Source: a virus
Lineage: Duplodnaviria; Heunggongvirae; Uroviricota; Caudoviricetes
Reading direction: 5' to 3' (one strand)
Length of the DNA stretch: 64,000 bases
IMG/VR virus record: IMGVR_UViG_3300037851_000345
Location: 60,067-124,066 of that record
Shown here piece by piece: positions 2,721 to 60,383 of this stretch (positions within the stretch are counted from its first letter, which is position 1; every line of letters begins with the position of its first letter). Made by a program: the position numbers and the translations under genes. The notes beneath the pieces are model-generated. The model made no database searches. It had not been told where the DNA came from and worked only from the letters and a program-made list of their open reading frames with translations.

Positions 2721-3377
2721 ATGACCAAGATTGGACTGATTCCTGGCAGAATGAATCCCCCGCATCGGGGACATCGCAAACTCTACAGGAAATCCCTAAC
2801 CGAGAATGATTTGACTGTCGTTGAAATCATCCAAGGCAAGAAAACCGCTTTGAACAAGGTCAGGAACCCTCTCACCTTCCAACAGAAGAAGAAAATCATC
2901 AGCGTGATTGAGCCACAGGTGGAAGTGAGACAGTTCCCCGCTGAAGGCAGTTCTAGGCCCGCCCGCTCTGACGTGCCAGGGATGATTGTCGAACTGTTGG
3001 AAGACATTCACACCAACGAGACAGATTTTCTGTTCACCGTGTACGCAGGCTCCGACCAAGCCGAAATGTACAACGTTCAGGCAAAGAACCCTGTGTACAT
3101 CCAAAAAATCAAGGACGAACTAGGCAGACCCGATTACAATATCACCATCAAGGTCGAAGGTGTGGAACGGGACGAATCGGCTGATGATGAAGCAAGTTAC
3201 TCAGCCACCAAGGTTCGAGAAGCCATCAGGACAGGTCAGGACGAATTGGCAAAGACGATGATGGGGATTACAGACGAAGAATTTTACGAGGAAATCAAGG
3301 CCGCTGTTCTTGCAGGGTTGCAAAAGGAAGCAGTTAACCAAAAAATAGACTCGATAATGGAGAAAGTAAATGGATAA
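2721..3377 (+). CDS. HxGH nucleotidyltransferase (cytidylyltransferase-like)
   Basis: GRMNPPHRGH (HxGH), AGSD and SATKVRE motifs typical of phage cytidylyltransferase-like proteins; ATG at 2721 follows AGGA. Confidence 0.8.
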   Translation: MTKIGLIPGRMNPPHRGHRKLYRKSLTENDLTVVEIIQGKKTALNKVRNPLTFQQKKKIISVIEPQVEVRQFPAEGSSRPARSDVPGMIVELLEDIHTNETDFLFTVYAGSDQAEMYNVQAKNPVYIQKIKDELGRPDYNITIKVEGVERDESADDEASYSATKVREAIRTGQDELAKTMMGITDEEFYEEIKAAVLAGLQKEAVNQKIDSIMEKVNG

Positions 3378-5043
3378 TTTTACTGCCGAAAAATTTGGAA
3401 CGGATAATGCGGGTTGCGAACAGGATTCCAAAATGTCCGTGAAGCAATTGGAAGACCTTCAGGAAGATACTTTGGTAAATCAGAAAGCCACCAACGAGGC
3501 TGTCCACGAAGAGGAAGAAGGGTCTGAGTTGGAAGACGTAGAAGAGTACGATGATTTCGGAGACCAAATTAAAAAATACCCTGACTACGAACCTGACAGA
3601 GACCAAGAATCTCCACACAGCGGCGATGATGATTCCTTTGGTGGTGGTTTGAGTGATGAAGAAGCCCCGTGGTATAGAAAACCATACGAAGAGCAACTCG
3701 ACCCACGATGGTTCAGGGACGAATACGTTCTTCTGAACGAGGCCGTGGATTGGGACGCTATCGAAAAAGACCCCAAGCAGTTGTTCACCGTTGGCAACAG
3801 CAAGGTAGGCAAGGATACGATTATTTTTAACCTTCAGCCCGCACGGTTTTGCCCTTCTTTGGAGCAGGGACATTGTAAGATTGTTAAGCCTATTGACGGA
3901 CAGTATAAGATTGCCTGCTACGCTTATCAGGACGAACGGCAGTACAAAGTGTCTCTTCAACTTCGCCAGCGCCAAATGCGTTTTTGGGACACGCACACCG
4001 CAGAGGAAATCTTCAAGAAGTTGGAAGATTTCTACTACTTGGTACACGGCGATTCGATGGTGTATCCTGTCTTGATGGCAAAGCGGGATGAGACGGCAAA
4101 GAGAAAAGGACATCCCGACATCAAAGGCAAAGAGAAAAGCGTCAAACTGAAATACATCCGCTTCAACCAATCAGGAGACTTGAAAGACGTTGACGATGCG
4201 AAGAAGATGGACAAGGTGGCAGAGTTGGCTTTGAAGAACTTGGGACTTGTAACCTACACTTACACAGCCCGTAAGGACATTCTAGCAGAGTACAAATTCC
4301 AACACGTCCACGTTCAGGGTTCAGGATTTGCGGCTATCACGGGAATAAACAGGCCTGTCAAGGCTAAATTCGGCAAGAGGAAAGGGGAATACTTGGGTAA
4401 AGTTTTTGCCGCTTTCCCGTCAATTTACAACAAGAGCGGCAAACTAGTCGAAAGAGAACCCAACAAACTTTACTACGAAGATATCATGTACCACAGTACC
4501 CCCGAAGGAAGCAGGAACCCAAGATTTAACAAGTGGTCTCATTCCAACGAGAAAGGGTGGTACGCCTGCCGCGGCGACTGCAACAGTTGCACCGCCTGCA
4601 AAGCAGACGAAGTTAAGCACATCGCCGTCAAAATCCACCGTTCGTTCCAAAAAATTTCCGACAAGTGGCAAGACGTGGAAGAAACACCGACAGGCGGCTA
4701 CAAAGTTCATCAGAAGTTCGACCCGTATGAAAGAGAGGCTTTGACGGGCCAGCCTTTGGTGTGGTCTAAGGAAATGGAAGACGAGTACGAGACCACCGCC
4801 AAACTGCTCAAAAAGGAAACAGAGTTCAACAGGCTTCCGAAACAGGAGCAAGTTGACTTTTTGACGATAAAGTTGCTAGACCTTTACGACAACTACGACC
4901 CCGACTTGGACAAGGAAGAACTCGACAAGAGGAAAAGGAACATCGACAATTGGGAAAAGAAGGCCGCAAAGAGGGATATCGATGTTGCCAAACTCAGAGC
5001 CGAAGCAGGGATGCCTGCCAAGAAGGAGAAGAAGAAAAAATGA
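3370..5043 (+). CDS. GP88-like cysteine-cluster protein with acidic N-terminal extension
   Basis: GNSKVG...FCP...C...ACYA, IRFNQSGD and C-terminal CRGDCNSCTAC match the Gene-product-88-like pattern as I recall it; the first ~110 aa are acidic and low complexity. Confidence 0.6.
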   Translation: MDNFTAEKFGTDNAGCEQDSKMSVKQLEDLQEDTLVNQKATNEAVHEEEEGSELEDVEEYDDFGDQIKKYPDYEPDRDQESPHSGDDDSFGGGLSDEEAPWYRKPYEEQLDPRWFRDEYVLLNEAVDWDAIEKDPKQLFTVGNSKVGKDTIIFNLQPARFCPSLEQGHCKIVKPIDGQYKIACYAYQDERQYKVSLQLRQRQMRFWDTHTAEEIFKKLEDFYYLVHGDSMVYPVLMAKRDETAKRKGHPDIKGKEKSVKLKYIRFNQSGDLKDVDDAKKMDKVAELALKNLGLVTYTYTARKDILAEYKFQHVHVQGSGFAAITGINRPVKAKFGKRKGEYLGKVFAAFPSIYNKSGKLVEREPNKLYYEDIMYHSTPEGSRNPRFNKWSHSNEKGWYACRGDCNSCTACKADEVKHIAVKIHRSFQKISDKWQDVEETPTGGYKVHQKFDPYEREALTGQPLVWSKEMEDEYETTAKLLKKETEFNRLPKQEQVDFLTIKLLDLYDNYDPDLDKEELDKRKRNIDNWEKKAAKRDIDVAKLRAEAGMPAKKEKKKK

Positions 5044-13496: not shown

Positions 13497-14612
13497 ATGA
13501 TTGTCAACGAAATTGAGATGCTAGGTTTGCTCGACACGAAGAACGTTGTTTTAGTCGAGCCAAATTACAGGCGCAAATACCCGCCCTTGGGATTGGCAAA
13601 AATATCAACCTACGTTAAGCGAAACGGCACCAAAGCCCGATTCGTGATGGGCAACCAACAGATTCCGCAGGACACCAACCTCTACTGCGTTTCGTCCCTG
13701 TTTACCTACAACACCAAGGAAGTGAAAGAGACGATTCGCAAGATTCGGTTCCTGAACCCGCAGGCTAACATCCTACTTGGCGGAATCGCGGCCTCTCTTG
13801 TTACCAAGGAATTTACCGAACAGGAAAACGTCAAGGTGTTCCCAGGCACTTCGCACGCGCTCGACCTGTGCGTACCCGACTACTCCTACGACTACCAAAT
13901 CGAAAAACCGTGGGACGAGTACTCTTTCACGTTCACGTCAAGGGGCTGTCCGAACCGATGTGCCTACTGCGCCGTGTGGCGGTTGGAGCCTAGGTACGAA
14001 ATCACCGAAAATTGGCGAGATCACATCTTAGAGGACAAGCCGTTTGCGATGATTAGCGACAACAATTTTTCCTCTCAGCCGATGGAACACATCGTGGCTG
14101 TTACGGAATTTCTGAAAGCGAAAAAGAAGAAGGTCGTGTTCGACAACGGCTTCGACTGCAAGCACATCGATGAGAACTTTGCCGAACTCGTAAGCGGAAT
14201 CAAGTACGTGCGTTCGGGATGCCGAGTTGCCTTTGACCGCATCGAAGAAGACGGAGTATTCCAAGACGCAGTTAAACGGTTAATCAATCACGGAGTTTCC
14301 CCTTCAAATATCATGGCTTACGTTTTATTTAATTTTACGGACAGTCCGCAGGGAGCCAACCACAGAATGACAGAGTGTGTAAAAATGAAAATCCGGCCGT
14401 ATCCTCAGCAGTACACACCGCTAAAGCATCTCGATAAGAAGCAAAAGTTTGTCGGTAAATATTGGACGGCAGGATTGCTCAGAGCCTTCCGTTTCTTTTG
14501 GCTGATGGCGGGCTACTACTGTAAGTACGATTTCGTTACGTGGGTGAAGAGCCAAAACAAATACGTCCTGACCAAAGAGGATTGGGACGCTTGGTACGGT
14601 AAGACGGCATGA
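13497..14612 (+). CDS. Radical SAM protein with N-terminal cobalamin-binding-type domain
   Basis: PPLGLAKISTY and ILLGGIAAS (B12-binding-type), SRGCPNRCAYC (CxxxCxxC), SDNNF. Confidence 0.85.
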   Translation: MIVNEIEMLGLLDTKNVVLVEPNYRRKYPPLGLAKISTYVKRNGTKARFVMGNQQIPQDTNLYCVSSLFTYNTKEVKETIRKIRFLNPQANILLGGIAASLVTKEFTEQENVKVFPGTSHALDLCVPDYSYDYQIEKPWDEYSFTFTSRGCPNRCAYCAVWRLEPRYEITENWRDHILEDKPFAMISDNNFSSQPMEHIVAVTEFLKAKKKKVVFDNGFDCKHIDENFAELVSGIKYVRSGCRVAFDRIEEDGVFQDAVKRLINHGVSPSNIMAYVLFNFTDSPQGANHRMTECVKMKIRPYPQQYTPLKHLDKKQKFVGKYWTAGLLRAFRFFWLMAGYYCKYDFVTWVKSQNKYVLTKEDWDAWYGKTA

Positions 14613-15940
14613 AAAAATTTACGCACATCGATTTATTTTCGGGAATTGGGGGATTTTCGTTGGCAGCAAAGCAAGTGTGGGGGGACGATTACCACAACCT
14701 GTTCTTCTGCGACAACAACAAGTACTGTCAAGCCGTACTCAGGAAAAATTTTGGAAAGGAGATTCTGATTTACGATGACATCAAAAAAATTAACAAGCAA
14801 CAAGTTATTGAAGACACCATCAGCCGCAGACGCTTACACGGACAAACTGAAGAAGAAAAAATGGAAGTTCGGGAACAGCGGCAGCTTGGCTCAAGAGATG
14901 GAAACGGGATTCTTTCTTCAGAGGCTCATACCCACTCCGACCAGCACGGACTACAAAAGCAGGGGCAAAGGGAGCAAGCAGATGGTCGTGGACAATCTTT
15001 TAAAGTTGACCTCCTCACAGCCGGCCCGCCTTGTCAACCCGCAAGTCAAGCAGGGAAGCGAGAGGGAGAAGATGATGACCGTTGGCTCTGGGAAGAAATG
15101 TTTAAAGTTATACAGGATTTTAAACCGACATGGTGCATCGTTGAAAACGTTTACGGCTTATTTACTCTCAAAAACGGAGTGGTCTTCGAATCGTTGCTCT
15201 CTAAAATGGAAGCCCTTGGTTACGAAGTCCAACCGTTTCTTATTGGTGCTGTCGGCAAAAACGCTCCCCACAAACGCTACCGGTTTTGGTTTGTTGCTCA
15301 CTCCATCGACAGTTCAAATCGAACCGAACGAAGACCGCTATCAAAAAAGAGTGGAGTACCGAGCCTCAGTAGACAGACAATGGGTGGCGGGATGCTTACA
15401 AGAACAATTGTCAATGATTCCGACCCCAAGCACAAAGGATGTTTCGGGCGGGGCAGTTCAAGCGACACAAACACCAACAGGGTTCAAGAGGGTGAGCAAG
15501 TCGGGCAAGTCTCACGGGGCGCAACTACACGATGTGATGAAGAGTGTTCCGATGTTAGGAACCCCGAAGGAACAGGACAGCCGAGTGGCATTGTCGGACA
15601 GGAGCAAGCACAACATGGGCGAACAAGTTCAACAGGCTTTGAAGGATGGAACAGGGATTGGTTTGAAGTTGCAACCGAATTTTGTAGAGTGGATGATGGG
15701 CTTTCCGCAAAATTGGACGGACTTGAACTCTCCAAATCCCAACACCGAGTCGAAAGATTAAAGGCCTTGGGAAATGCCGTAGCAGTCCCCTTGGTGGCTA
15801 CTCTGCTCCAAATGATAAAGGATGTTGAAGAAAACCTCACGGAGATTGACTCCGAGCAATTAAAGGCAAATTACCTAAATATAAGTGAAAAGAAAGGCGA
15901 ACTATTCGTCATCAAGGATTTAAGGAATTGGCAAAAATGA
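14609..15940 (+). CDS. dcm: C5 cytosine DNA methyltransferase (main frame)
   Basis: Motif I DLFSGIGG, IV GPPCQP, VI ENV, VIII HKRYRFW, X RLKALGNAV. Confidence 0.9.
   Translation: MKKFTHIDLFSGIGGFSLAAKQVWGDDYHNLFFCDNNKYCQAVLRKNFGKEILIYDDIKKINKQQVIEDTISRRRLHGQTEEEKMEVREQRQLGSRDGNGILSSEAHTHSDQHGLQKQGQREQADGRGQSFKVDLLTAGPPCQPASQAGKREGEDDDRWLWEEMFKVIQDFKPTWCIVENVYGLFTLKNGVVFESLLSKMEALGYEVQPFLIGAVGKNAPHKRYRFWFVAHSIDSSNRTERRPLSKKSGVPSLSRQTMGGGMLTRTIVNDSDPKHKGCFGRGSSSDTNTNRVQEGEQVGQVSRGATTRCDEECSDVRNPEGTGQPSGIVGQEQAQHGRTSSTGFEGWNRDWFEVATEFCRVDDGLSAKLDGLELSKSQHRVERLKALGNAVAVPLVATLLQMIKDVEENLTEIDSEQLKANYLNISEKKGELFVIKDLRNWQK
14775..15761 (+). CDS. Overlapping +1-frame ORF: putative second methyltransferase polypeptide (PTP repeats plus motif IX-like segment)
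   Basis: 328-aa ORF nested in dcm; four (P/L/G)TP-type repeats; ends LQPNFVEWMMGFPQNWTDL. Start codon uncertain. Confidence 0.7.
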   Translation: MTSKKLTSNKLLKTPSAADAYTDKLKKKKWKFGNSGSLAQEMETGFFLQRLIPTPTSTDYKSRGKGSKQMVVDNLLKLTSSQPARLVNPQVKQGSEREKMMTVGSGKKCLKLYRILNRHGASLKTFTAYLLSKTEWSSNRCSLKWKPLVTKSNRFLLVLSAKTLPTNATGFGLLLTPSTVQIEPNEDRYQKRVEYRASVDRQWVAGCLQEQLSMIPTPSTKDVSGGAVQATQTPTGFKRVSKSGKSHGAQLHDVMKSVPMLGTPKEQDSRVALSDRSKHNMGEQVQQALKDGTGIGLKLQPNFVEWMMGFPQNWTDLNSPNPNTESKD

Positions 15941-16131
15941 GAATTTTAGGAATTCCTCTTGTAATGGGTGATAAATATGCGCATGATAATTCTCCATCTT
16001 TGGATAGAATAATTCCAGAGTTAGGATATGTGAAAGGTAACATTATGGTTATTAGTCATAAGGCTAATACTATTAAAAGTAATGCAAATATTGAGGAGTT
16101 AGAAAAGGTTTTTTGTTTTATAAGAATTTAA
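15937..16131 (+). pseudogene. C-terminal fragment of an HNH-type endonuclease
   Basis: SPSLDRIIPELGYVKGNIMVISHKANTIKS without the preceding domain. Confidence 0.6.
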
Positions 16132-30530: not shown

Positions 30531-31387
30531 TGAAAATTTGGAACGAGTTCTACCGTCCACGGACGATTGACGAAATGATGCTCCCTGCCGAACAGAAGGA
30601 AGTATTTAAGCAGTACTTAGAATCAGGACTGCCGAACGTAATCTTTTACGGCAGTCCAGGCACAGGCAAGACAACAACGGCACTCATCTTCCTTCGGGAG
30701 TTGGATGCCGAACACCTGAGATTGAACGGTTCCGACACAAGGGGCATCGACGTCGTGCGGGAGCAAATCAAGAATTTTATTCAGGTCAAGGCTTTCAATT
30801 CCAAGCGTAAAATCGTGTTCTACGATGAAGCCGAAGCCCTGACCCCTGACGCTTTCAAGGCGTTGAAGGAAATGACGGAACGCTACCATCAGACAGCGAG
30901 TTTCATCTTCTGTACGAACCACTTGTACAAGTTCCCCGAAGCCATCCGAAGTCGTTGCACGTTGTTTAACTTCACTAAGCCAATCAAGGAAGAAACGATA
31001 AAGTATCTCAAAGGAGTGCTTGAAAAAGAAAAGGTTAAGTACGAACCCGAAGCCCTAGACACGGTTTACCGCCTGTGCGGGGGAGACTTGCGCAGGGCAT
31101 TAAATTACCTTCAACGGTATTCGATGTCGGGAAAGTTGGAACTACCCGAAGAGACGTTCGGAGAAATTTGGAAAATTATCAAGAGTGGGAACATCGTGGA
31201 GTTGAAACGGTATTTTGCGGGACACAGTGTAGACTACGATGGCCTGTACCGCTTCCTGTTCGAAAGGACGGAAGACCCGCAGAAGGCAATCCTGTTGGCA
31301 AAGTACGCTTATCAGGACGCTCTGTGCGTGGACAAGGAAATTAATTTCGTGGGGTTTGTTGCCGAACTATACCGCATCAAACAATAA
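30530..31387 (+). CDS. gp44: Clamp loader AAA+ subunit (T4 gp44/RFC-small-like)
   Basis: YRP, GSPGTGKTT, DEAE, SRC, GDLRRALN. Confidence 0.93.
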   Translation: MKIWNEFYRPRTIDEMMLPAEQKEVFKQYLESGLPNVIFYGSPGTGKTTTALIFLRELDAEHLRLNGSDTRGIDVVREQIKNFIQVKAFNSKRKIVFYDEAEALTPDAFKALKEMTERYHQTASFIFCTNHLYKFPEAIRSRCTLFNFTKPIKEETIKYLKGVLEKEKVKYEPEALDTVYRLCGGDLRRALNYLQRYSMSGKLELPEETFGEIWKIIKSGNIVELKRYFAGHSVDYDGLYRFLFERTEDPQKAILLAKYAYQDALCVDKEINFVGFVAELYRIKQ

Positions 31388-31390
31388 ATA
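31384..31390 (+). promoter_or_regulatory. Late promoter
   Basis: ATAAATA directly upstream of ATG 31396. Confidence 0.5.
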
Positions 31391-31395
31391 ATAAT

Positions 31396-31683
31396 ATGGC
31401 AAAGTTTAGAGTAATTGAACGCAAACGAAAAGGGTCATATGGCGCCGTGGCTTTACAAAAACATTTCCAAAAGAACAAGGAATGGGAAGACTACAAGAAA
31501 AAGGTAGCGGACGAGAAAGAAAAAGCCGAGAAAGACAAAAAGGAAGTAAAAGAACAAACCCTAGCAGGCGCAGGATTCCCCACGGCAACTGCTGACGGAA
31601 AACAAGCCATCGACAAGATGCCTTTAGGGGTAAAAAAGAAAAAGAAAAGACGGATAATCAAAAGAGTCCTACCAACTGTTTAG
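31396..31683 (+). CDS. Small basic late protein
   Basis: MAKFRVIE start; Lys-rich. Confidence 0.6.
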   Translation: MAKFRVIERKRKGSYGAVALQKHFQKNKEWEDYKKKVADEKEKAEKDKKEVKEQTLAGAGFPTATADGKQAIDKMPLGVKKKKKRRIIKRVLPTV

Positions 31684-31713
31684 TTCGATAAAGTAGGAAC
31701 GAAGGAGTTAAGA

Positions 31714-31962
31714 ATGGGTATTTACAATTACGTCAATTTTCAAATCAATTGCCCTACCTGTAATCATTTAATCACCCAATTTCAGACGAAGGACGGTGAT
31801 GGTTCTTTTGATACTGTAGACTTTAACGAAGTCAACAATTTCTACGGCATCTGCCCAGGTTGTCAATCCTTCGTGGAATTTTATTATTCCCCTGATAACA
31901 AAGTTCGCACGATTGAAGATTACAAAGTACGTGTAATAAAATTAGGAAGAAATGGGAAGTAA
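31714..31962 (+). CDS. Zinc-finger protein
   Basis: CPTC...FQTKD...CPGC. Confidence 0.7.
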   Translation: MGIYNYVNFQINCPTCNHLITQFQTKDGDGSFDTVDFNEVNNFYGICPGCQSFVEFYYSPDNKVRTIEDYKVRVIKLGRNGK

Positions 31963-32023
31963 TTATGGGCTTTGTCCCGCCATCATTTAAGGATTACAAA
32001 AACCTGATTGGTATTGGTTACTA

Positions 32024-32188
32024 ATGAATACAATTAAAGCAATCTTAGGTGCCAAAGCAGAGGGACAGGCTGCCGATGGCGTCATCAATAAATGTCTACC
32101 AATGGAAGAATTTAGAGAAATAGTTTACGAATATTACCCCACGTACAGAGACAAAATCAAACTTTGGGAAAAGTTGCATGGAAAATAA
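32024..32188 (+). CDS. 54-aa protein ending in the DKIxLWEKLH motif (missed by the ORF track)
   Basis: MNTIKAILG...YPTYRDKIKLWEKLHGK*; no clear RBS, TAATG overlap with a short upstream ORF. Confidence 0.5.
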   Translation: MNTIKAILGAKAEGQAADGVINKCLPMEEFREIVYEYYPTYRDKIKLWEKLHGK

Positions 32189-32549
32189 TTCACCTTTTAG
32201 ATTTGCCAAGCAAATTCAACAGGGAGAACCGCTGAACCCTGACGAAATAAAGGAGTTTCAGCCGTACTTGCTCAATCGGCTTTACTACTACGCAGGGTAC
32301 GAGAAGTATGCCAATCTGCTGAACGTGCTTTGGAGTTTGCCGAAGGAAGCGCAATACAAACTGTTCTGCACCCTTTACAAAGGCGTTTATCCGAAAGGAT
32401 GGATTAAGTCAACCAAGACGAAAGAACCAAACTTGATAGAGGTTGAATATTTGAAGAAAGTTTATAAAGTTTCTACGAAGGTTGCGAAAGATTACGTCGA
32501 ATTGCTGACGAAGGAAGAGAAGAAGGAGATTCGCCAGAGGTATGAATGA
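32178..32549 (+). CDS. gp62: Clamp loader small subunit (T4 gp62-like)
   Basis: SPFRFA...PYLLNR...ANLLN...QY...W.K...EYLKKVY..S.KVA...LT pattern; follows gp44. Confidence 0.7.
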   Translation: MENNSPFRFAKQIQQGEPLNPDEIKEFQPYLLNRLYYYAGYEKYANLLNVLWSLPKEAQYKLFCTLYKGVYPKGWIKSTKTKEPNLIEVEYLKKVYKVSTKVAKDYVELLTKEEKKEIRQRYE

Positions 32550-59643: not shown

Positions 59644-60383
59644 TGGCTATTTCCGAACAAATCAAAACAGTAATAGAGTTCAGAGATTACATCCGCAGAA
59701 AACTAGGTGAACCTAAAGTCAGGGTAGAATTGGCTGATTCCCAAATCGATACGAACCTCTACGATGCTATTCAGTTGTTCAGAGAATACTCAACAGGCAG
59801 AGGCAACACAAGGTCTTTCATGGCCTTGGATTTACAAATAGGGGTTCAAGATTATCAACTTCCCGATTACGTCATGCAGTTGGGATACGATAAAACGAGT
59901 CAATCAGTTTCAGCATGGGTCTTGGCGCAACTGTCAGGCTATGCGGCTAGTGATGTCCTCAGCCTGAAATCATTCGACATGGTTTCATTTTATATGCTCC
60001 AACAATGGATTCACTATTTGAAGTACATCACCATTTCCAAGTTCCGTCTATTTTTCAACACGAATACGAAGATGCTCCACGTTGTGCCAAAGCCTGATGA
60101 TGAATACACCAAACTCTTTATCGAAGTGTTCCACCAAGGGACTACTGACGAATTACTGAACGAACGATTTGTTCGTGAGTACACTCTCGCTCTTTGTAAG
60201 ATTGAACTAGGCGAAATCAGGAGTAAGTTCCAAAGTTTGCCAGGGTTCAACAACTCGGTTTCTCTCAACGGGGAAACATTGAAGACAGAAGGACAAGCGG
60301 AAAAGGAAAAATTGGAGGACGATTTGACCACCCATTTTAAGTGGTCGGCCCCGCCATTTCCCGTTTTTCGTAGCGTAGATTAA
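59643..60383 (+). CDS. gp13: Neck protein (T4 gp13-like)
   Basis: DYIRRKLGEP.VRVEL..SQID...DAIQ.F.EY; VREY.LAL.K..LG....KF...PG...LNG. Confidence 0.85.
   Translation: MAISEQIKTVIEFRDYIRRKLGEPKVRVELADSQIDTNLYDAIQLFREYSTGRGNTRSFMALDLQIGVQDYQLPDYVMQLGYDKTSQSVSAWVLAQLSGYAASDVLSLKSFDMVSFYMLQQWIHYLKYITISKFRLFFNTNTKMLHVVPKPDDEYTKLFIEVFHQGTTDELLNERFVREYTLALCKIELGEIRSKFQSLPGFNNSVSLNGETLKTEGQAEKEKLEDDLTTHFKWSAPPFPVFRSVD

Follow-up and report, generated by a model that had tools for sequence, protein, structure and literature searches.

A conserved second reading frame nested within a phage DNA cytosine methyltransferase gene, and the case for a two-subunit enzyme with recognition modules on the nested chain

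The window analysed here is the whole stretch of 64,000 nucleotides (nt) taken from the IMG/VR virus record IMGVR_UViG_3300037851_000345 (positions 60,067 to 124,066 of that record), and all coordinates below refer to it unless a relative is named. It carries a gene for the catalytic chain of a DNA (cytosine-5) methyltransferase (C5-MTase), here called alpha, and a second open reading frame (ORF), here called beta, which lies entirely inside alpha. The start of beta is offset from that of alpha by 166 nt, which places it in the +1 frame. Both ORFs, including the 328 amino acids (aa) of the nested one, lie where a preliminary description of this locus had put them.

14609..15940, plus strand: alpha gene, C5-cytosine methyltransferase catalytic chain, 443 aa (P0001), from its PF00145 and M.HhaI profile matches.
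14775..15761, plus strand: beta gene, 328-aa ORF inside alpha in the +1 frame (P0002), proposed recognition or small-domain subunit, from its phrog_1008 match and its homologues.

Alpha matches PF00145 with an E value of 1.8e-38 and 133 bits (cutoff 22), and the profile of the alpha family matches residues 12-175 of M.HhaI, that is motifs I-VIII, at E 1e-31. The chain consists of motifs I-III, a 70-aa spacer poor in hydrophobic residues, motifs IV-VIII (hereafter the core), a 114-aa linker, a block with the pattern W..W.EVAT..C.VDDG and finally motif X. The C5-MTase signature is present in its usual order (FxGxG in motif I, PCQ in IV, ENV in VI, RxR in VIII and GNxV in X), and the residues P141, C142, Q143, E179, N180, R223, R225, G388 and N389 are invariant.

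14636..14656, plus strand: alpha motif I, FSGIGGF, the S-adenosylmethionine (AdoMet)-binding loop, read from the sequence and lying upstream of the overlap.
14792..15001, plus strand: alpha spacer between motifs III and IV, hydrophobic fraction 0.16, 20-177 aa long in the family; the N-terminal repeats of beta are encoded here.
15002..15304, plus strand: alpha catalytic core with motif IV (PPCQ, 15026-15037), motif VI (ENV) and motif VIII (HKRYR); in the +1 frame this is the middle part of beta.
15305..15646, plus strand: alpha linker from motif VIII to the C-terminal block, disordered filler with a predicted local distance difference test score (pLDDT) of 33-49; in the +1 frame it is the part of beta that resembles a target recognition domain (TRD).
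15758..15796, plus strand: alpha motif X, LKALGNAVAVPLV, beginning at the last sense codon of beta, directly 5' of the beta stop (15759-15761).

Between motifs VIII and X, alpha has no recognisable TRD and no recognisable motif IX; the stretch at the expected motif IX position reads EVATEFCRVDDGLSAKLDG, and only the +1 frame contains a sequence resembling motif IX. The preliminary description was thus right that the main frame holds motifs I, IV, VI, VIII and X and lacks motif IX. From motif VIII to the C-terminal block there is no conserved alpha segment, and conserved TRD-like modules occur only in beta. The two variable stretches of alpha have a hydrophobic fraction of about 0.15, as compared with 0.35-0.41 in its conserved parts, and across the family their lengths range over 20-177 aa and 24-177 aa. 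An AlphaFold2 model of alpha built on a 63-row alignment places the large domain above pLDDT 90 and shows the motif X helix at pLDDT 74-84, with residues 239-344 disordered at 33-49. The view that these regions are low-complexity filler is borne out by their composition, by the linker pLDDT below 50 and by a switch in the phase of substitutions from the alpha to the beta frame, described below.

Beta contains a series of short repeats of the general form hydrophobic-hydrophobic-PTP-xxx-D (PTP repeats), a conserved middle part and a C-terminal segment resembling motif IX.

14756..14761, plus strand: AAGGAG, a Shine-Dalgarno-like hexamer 13 nt 5' of the beta ATG.
14775..14777, plus strand: beta start codon within alpha motif III (YDDI in alpha is TMTS in beta), a conserved +1 ATG.
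14805..14837, plus strand: beta repeat 1, LLKTPSAADAY, within a 108-nt stretch absent from L001, the closest relative of the window.
14925..14954, plus strand: beta repeat 2, LIPTPTSTDY (family consensus LLPTPxxxD).
15161..15298, plus strand: beta segment at residues ~130-175, W.S..C.L.WK...RFLLVL.A..GLL, over alpha 185-230, with purifying selection in the beta frame, a modelled hairpin and predicted contacts to alpha 206-222.
15291..15317, plus strand: beta repeat 3, LLLTPSTVQ, directly 3' of alpha motif VIII and in frame with motif VIII in L006 (P0082).
15414..15440, plus strand: beta repeat 4, MIPTPSTKD.
15552..15578, plus strand: beta repeat 5, MLGTPKEQD, in which T263 and P264 are nearly invariant.
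15663..15719, plus strand: beta motif IX-like segment LKLQPNFVEWMMGFPQNWT at the end of beta, overlying the conserved EVATEFCRVDDGLSAKLD of alpha, suggested by a weak alignment and by predicted docking.

All four repeats listed in the preliminary description are present, as is the C-terminal sequence LQPNFVEWMMGFPQNWT; its count was incomplete, since it had passed over the repeat at 14805-14837. With this fifth repeat there are two units between motifs I and IV, and not the single one it had claimed. The number of units per beta varies from one to six in the family. Repeat expansion without damage to the catalytic frame, also proposed there, is supported by the wide length ranges of the alpha linkers and by the comparison with L001, against which the window carries a 108-nt insertion (14822-14929; L001:3210) that lengthens beta by one PTP-type unit and the alpha spacer by 36 residues while both frames stay open. 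Across the motif IX segment nearly every nucleotide is invariant. By hhalign, beta residues 297-315 align to RKLTPRECFNLQGFPPDYK, the motif IX of L002, a canonical single-frame phage enzyme that has CCPTLTAN in its TRD.

An ATG in the +1 frame inside alpha motif III is found in 57 of 63 genes (consensus F/S-M-x-T-S), where alpha (I/Y)(G/D/E)DI becomes M-x-T-S in beta, and the first LLPTP unit usually follows right after it. In family members that have no N-terminal repeats, beta starts just ahead of motif IV and never past motif VIII. Given that beta begins before the core even without an N-terminal repeat, the middle part appears to belong to beta. Shine-Dalgarno-like sites at 5-13 nt are found in a minority of relatives. 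A run of seven A residues (14783-14789) stands right after the beta start codon and is a potential slippage site that could move ribosomes initiated on alpha into the beta frame. Transcriptional slippage at this run was considered as a general route into beta and rejected, as the run is absent from L001.

We then compared selection in the two frames, as the preliminary description had suggested, using 63 genes that are pairwise less than 80% identical. Third-base identity was taken at columns with identical amino acids and set against a null of synonymous shuffles. Synonymous sites of alpha are unconstrained in motifs I-III (0.425 versus a null of 0.414) and in motif X (0.399 versus 0.374), constrained in the core (0.564 versus 0.383) and nearly frozen in the block under beta motif IX (0.879 versus 0.389). 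Synonymous sites of beta are almost free in the TRD part (0.413 versus 0.369), which implies that the alpha linker is unconstrained as a protein there; over the alpha core and in motif IX the corresponding values are 0.728 versus 0.384 and 0.579 versus 0.382. For the roughly 45 codons over alpha 185-230 (W.S..C.L.WK...RLLFQL.PS..GLL in the per-column comparison), the beta residues are conserved far above the shuffle null and often above the residues of alpha itself, with example columns of 0.88 versus 0.30 (alpha 0.45) and 0.65 versus 0.13 (alpha 0.17).

The substitutions that separate the window from L001, whose alpha is 84% identical, follow the same course. In motifs I-III, 13 of 15 differences fall at alpha codon position 3, and the rate of change at this position goes down in the core, from 24% to 2%. 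Beta codon position 3 accounts for 7 of 10 differences in the TRD and for all three in motif IX. Selection in the two frames thus speaks for a functional beta. At the DNA level the TRD of the window aligns to that of L009 with gaps too heavy for a reading by codon position.

The beta profile search and a sampling of loci show how widespread this layout is. Beta matches phrog_1008 in PHROG at 9e-24, and an initial search gave 187 homologues; a profile built from 70 sequences then retrieved 42,295 cluster representatives at E ≤1e-3, with 3,932 at ≤1e-30. We sampled 160 loci from IMG/VR, 80 of them by beta patterns and 80 only by patterns for alpha motifs IV and VIII. An alpha with N-terminus, core and C-terminus in one frame, together with the beta middle and C-terminal parts in the +1 frame, is found in about 75 of the 80 beta-ascertained and 79 of the 80 alpha-ascertained loci, or about 155 of 160 overall. 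The +1 frame is thus conserved, and the possibility raised beforehand that it might not be is contradicted by both the layout and the number of beta cluster representatives.

Of 158 genes, 157 read through the core without a stop in the +1 frame, namely 77 of the 78 non-identical genes sampled by beta patterns and all 80 of those sampled by alpha patterns. Shuffling of synonymous codons leads one to expect 3.7 stops per gene in this frame over the core, with P(zero) of about 0.02, and for the alpha gene of the window only 0.7% of the shuffles are stop-free there. The +2 frame has about six stops over the core, matching expectation. The openness of the +1 frame over the core is far beyond chance. 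Collectively our data show that the alpha and beta frames are both open and conserved, with selection acting on them in complementary fashion, and, to judge from its sequence, beta is a real gene and not a by-product of the methylase frame.

A few loci are arranged differently. In L006 (2001-3591), a single frame (P0082) covers motifs I-VIII together with the PTP units and motif IX, motif VIII running directly into LTPSTVQIEP..., and L050 has a similar frame layout, its alpha frame likewise holding the TRD and motif IX. The natural fusion in L006 indicates that the beta TRD and motif IX can occupy the position of a normal small domain; the Pfam match of P0082 ends at motif VIII and by itself is no proof of a TRD and motif IX downstream. 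Ahead of motif X, L006 has an inserted HNH-like ORF (2994-3482), and motif X follows about 600 nt downstream in another frame; the insertion may be homing-endonuclease or intron-like. In L007 (137-1110, a short contig), the beta frame (P0006) holds motifs I-III and a different frame motifs IV-X, which from the sequence could be either an indel, an assembly error or another way of dividing the enzyme. L003 (2341-2360) and L004, two independent assemblies of one phage, both have an in-frame TAA in alpha motif I (FSGIG*GGF), with the remainder of alpha and the whole of beta intact; this looks like either a fresh pseudogene or a case of stop read-through. Genetic code 25, in which TGA is read as Gly, was considered for this stop in L003 and is ruled out by the codon, which is TAA.

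A complex of the two chains, proposed in the preliminary description as a further check, was predicted from alignments built in this analysis, with rows in shared locus order. The prediction scored 0.85, with the best of three controls at 0.00; of 80 solved complexes 58 came up to this mark, as did 2 of 110 mismatched pairs. At least 40% of the contacts are common to the runs, with a partner pLDDT of at least 45 (below 50 in at least one run). Residues 297-320 of beta, the motif IX segment, are predicted to contact alpha 13-18, 39-47 and 379-410, which correspond to motifs I, II and X, and in the model this docking is at the canonical place of motif IX. A second set of predicted contacts joins beta 113-161 to alpha 189-235, with beta 157-159 paired with alpha 209-212. 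The PTP repeats lie outside the predicted interface. The model of beta alone shows a hairpin spanning residues 141-163, at pLDDT 77-80, and has moderate confidence over 180-260.

Based on this data, we propose that the locus probably encodes a two-subunit C5-MTase of the M.EcoHK31I kind, written in two frames of one DNA stretch, with the recognition modules on beta. The heterodimeric reading put forward in the preliminary description gains support from the conserved protein frame, its own start codon, selection on beta where alpha is free, and the predicted docking of motif IX. Alpha would supply a complete catalytic large domain, in which motifs I-III form the AdoMet site, motif IV brings the catalytic Cys, and motifs VI and VIII and the helix of motif X are present as well, and two flexible stretches would take the place of the canonical short III-IV segment and of the small domain. 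Beta would be translated separately, from the ATG inside alpha motif III through the spacer, core and linker to a stop where motif X begins. It would provide motif IX, docked on the motif X/I surface of alpha, and several units of about 40 aa, each with a hydrophobic-hydrophobic-P-T-P-x-x-x-D loop resembling the canonical PTLTA recognition loop, through which the repeats would recognise DNA; its conserved middle hairpin may anchor it on the edge strand of the alpha sheet. The heterodimer would then bind DNA, flip out the target cytosine and methylate it, and the phage genome would in this way be shielded from host restriction.

Several observations weigh against this proposal. The model of beta is moderate (mean pLDDT 61, residues 1-94 disordered), a sequence search of the PDB with the beta profile gave no match even at E 10, and a Foldseek search of the PDB with this moderate-quality model gave nothing at E ≤0.001. 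The alignment of beta to the L002 motif IX is weak (E 0.073 over 19 columns). The pair amounts to a split C5-MTase, so that the complex score may partly reflect likeness to solved single-chain enzymes, and the shared locus order of the alignment rows is a further caveat on it. The predicted contact between the middle of beta and alpha runs near the co-encoding diagonal (alpha minus beta residue number about 53 in the contact versus about 55 on the diagonal, or 2-3 residues apart), so that it may be an artefact caused by the nucleotides common to both chains there. While the window has a Shine-Dalgarno-like site 13 nt from the beta ATG, many relatives have no recognisable one. Lastly, there are rare natural variants: L006 and L050 have the TRD and motif IX in the core frame, and L007 reads motif I in the beta frame. 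Either covalent linkage is tolerated, then, or those copies are broken.

Three other explanations have to be weighed against separate subunits. That the +1 ORF is a non-functional by-product, open through composition and conserved only through the methylase frame, is scarcely credible. Some of the beta similarity over motifs IV-VI does derive from the alpha frame (SPAS is FPCQ and LKT is ENV in +1, and shuffles alone give a beta identity of 0.245 over the core), yet such an ORF should not be stop-free in 157 of 158 genes at a chance of about 0.02 each while the +2 frame behaves as expected, nor have a conserved start codon, and beta is most conserved exactly in the TRD, where alpha is unconstrained and the phase of substitution follows beta. 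A more serious possibility, though still an unlikely one, is that beta is a real, separate protein overprinted on the methylase without being a subunit of it, such as a DNA-binding protein, an anti-restriction factor or a regulator. Purifying selection of its own, the lack of any detected sequence or fold relative among solved structures and the position of the repeats outside the predicted interface would all fit such a protein. It would leave to coincidence that alpha lacks exactly the parts, TRD and motif IX, which the C-terminal half of beta resembles, and that L006 fuses these in frame after motif VIII as in a normal enzyme. The presence of both genes together in about 155 of 160 loci and the predicted docking of motif IX at its canonical position (0.85 versus 0.00, with the caveats for a split enzyme given above) also speak for a subunit.

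We consider it very unlikely that a single chain is made by recoding, in which ribosomes would translate alpha to motif VIII, shift by +1 into the TRD and motif IX and shift back by -1 into motif X. The joined reading is collinear with canonical I-VIII/TRD/IX/X enzymes, with joins after FVA and after WTDL; the first join, FVA/TPSTVQ, matches the natural in-frame sequence of P0082 (IVALTPSTVQ), and the second, GFPQNWTDL/ELSKSQHRVERLKALGNAV, gives a gap of eight residues from GFP to SKSQ, the counterpart of which in M.HhaI is about seven residues. L006 and L050, whose alpha frame includes TRD and motif IX, also suit this scheme. It requires, however, two efficient shifts in opposite directions, with no zero-frame stop or obvious pause element to drive the +1 shift, and a homopolymer or X_XXY_YYZ site is present at the VIII/TRD junction in none of 63 genes and at the IX/X junction in 2 of 47. 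An open and selected +1 frame over the core, the conserved +1 ATG at motif III and the conserved repeats upstream of motif IV would all remain unexplained. The frameshifted enzyme that the preliminary description offered as an option beside the heterodimer is therefore not favoured, and we retain two separately translated subunits as the preferred reading.

More tentatively, and we regard this extension as doubtful, the overlap itself might be structurally co-designed, such that co-encoded strands of alpha and beta pair with each other and the PTP units form a modular, possibly multispecific array that tolerates indels in the alpha linkers. About 30 nt at ~15221-15250 would then encode both the alpha edge strand 205-214 and the beta hairpin strand 155-163, and the array would grow and shrink by indels inside the two disordered linkers of alpha with catalysis untouched. 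If this were true, the overlap, at ~330 codons, would rank with the longest functional ones on a single strand that are known from phages and would represent a natural interface written twice in one sequence.

The closest described precedent is M.EcoHK31I of E. coli, which recognises YGGCCR. Its alpha chain carries motifs I-VIII and X together with the TRD, motif IX resides on its beta chain, whose coding sequence lies entirely within the alpha gene in a different frame, and activity needs both chains (PMC2836561). The window pair is alike in that alpha has motifs I-VIII and X without IX, while the IX-like segment is on a beta chain read from an alternative frame inside alpha. The precedent, as invoked in the preliminary description, therefore holds for a nested beta with motif IX but not for the location of the TRD, which in M.EcoHK31I is on alpha (PMC2836561) and is absent from alpha of the window. 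In the window alpha has a disordered linker instead, and the 328-aa beta carries all the TRD-like modules rather than motif IX alone; beta also begins at motif III and spans the whole core, with about 45 codons selected in both frames. Moreover, M.EcoHK31I is one enzyme whereas the present family is a huge phage-borne one, a comparison made by description.

Canonical single-chain enzymes of PF00145 such as M.HhaI and M.HaeIII share the catalytic motifs of alpha in the same order, and the hhPTPxxxD loops (h, hydrophobic) and FVEWMMGFPxxWT of beta resemble the PTLTA loop and motif IX of L002. They differ in that the window has its small domain off the catalytic chain, in the +1 frame, and extra units ahead of motif IV, and the Pfam model misses beta; a Pfam search with beta itself gave nothing relevant. 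The C5-MTases of the Bacillus phages SPR, phi3T and rho11s are multispecific, with tandem short recognition modules in their variable region. Unlike the alpha/beta pair, these enzymes are single polypeptides encoded in one frame.

The same two-frame methylase, of the same family, is present in cultured Paenibacillus larvae phages (54 records), which makes the idea directly testable. In phage Diva (L168, KP296791.1) the methylase is annotated at 31248-32300 and a nested coding sequence (CDS) at 31432-32136 is noted as 'g49 internal gene' (DIVA_49/DIVA_50). The GenBank annotation of these phages is inconsistent, as the nested CDS is entered as hypothetical, as a second 'DNA methyltransferase' or omitted (HB10c2 has alpha only). 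The comparative-genomics papers on P. larvae phages list the genes without discussing the nested one, and in our literature search a description of the family-wide nested arrangement was not found, only the M.EcoHK31I work and the P. larvae phage genome papers.

If the two-subunit reading is correct, annotation in a single frame would mean that tens of thousands of phage methylases are filed either as hypothetical proteins or as whole enzymes when the recognition half is missing from them. Beta would be the seat of specificity, and predictions of phage methylation specificity would change once the pair is recognised. With more than 40,000 clusters, the family offers natural data on two proteins in one sequence, including a catalytic core that shares its codons with a second selected protein. 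It would also provide a ready-made split methyltransferase scaffold of the sort engineered from M.EcoHK31I for targeted methylation.

Upstream of the methylase lies a gene at 13497-14612 (371 aa) with weak similarity to radical S-adenosylmethionine (E 5e-4) and B12-binding (E 1e-3) proteins, both below the Pfam cutoff. Its stop shares the sequence ATGA with the start codon of alpha, and through this overlap the two genes may be translationally coupled. A 67-aa ORF at 15928-16131 overlaps the end of alpha by 13 nt and resembles the C-terminal part of an HNH nuclease; Pfam gave no match for it. This HNH-like remnant is followed by a gene that appears resolvase-like from its sequence, without a Pfam match, and in L001, which does not have the 67-aa ORF, a resolvase-like gene comes directly after the methylase. 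Overall, the genes that flank the methylase look phage-like.

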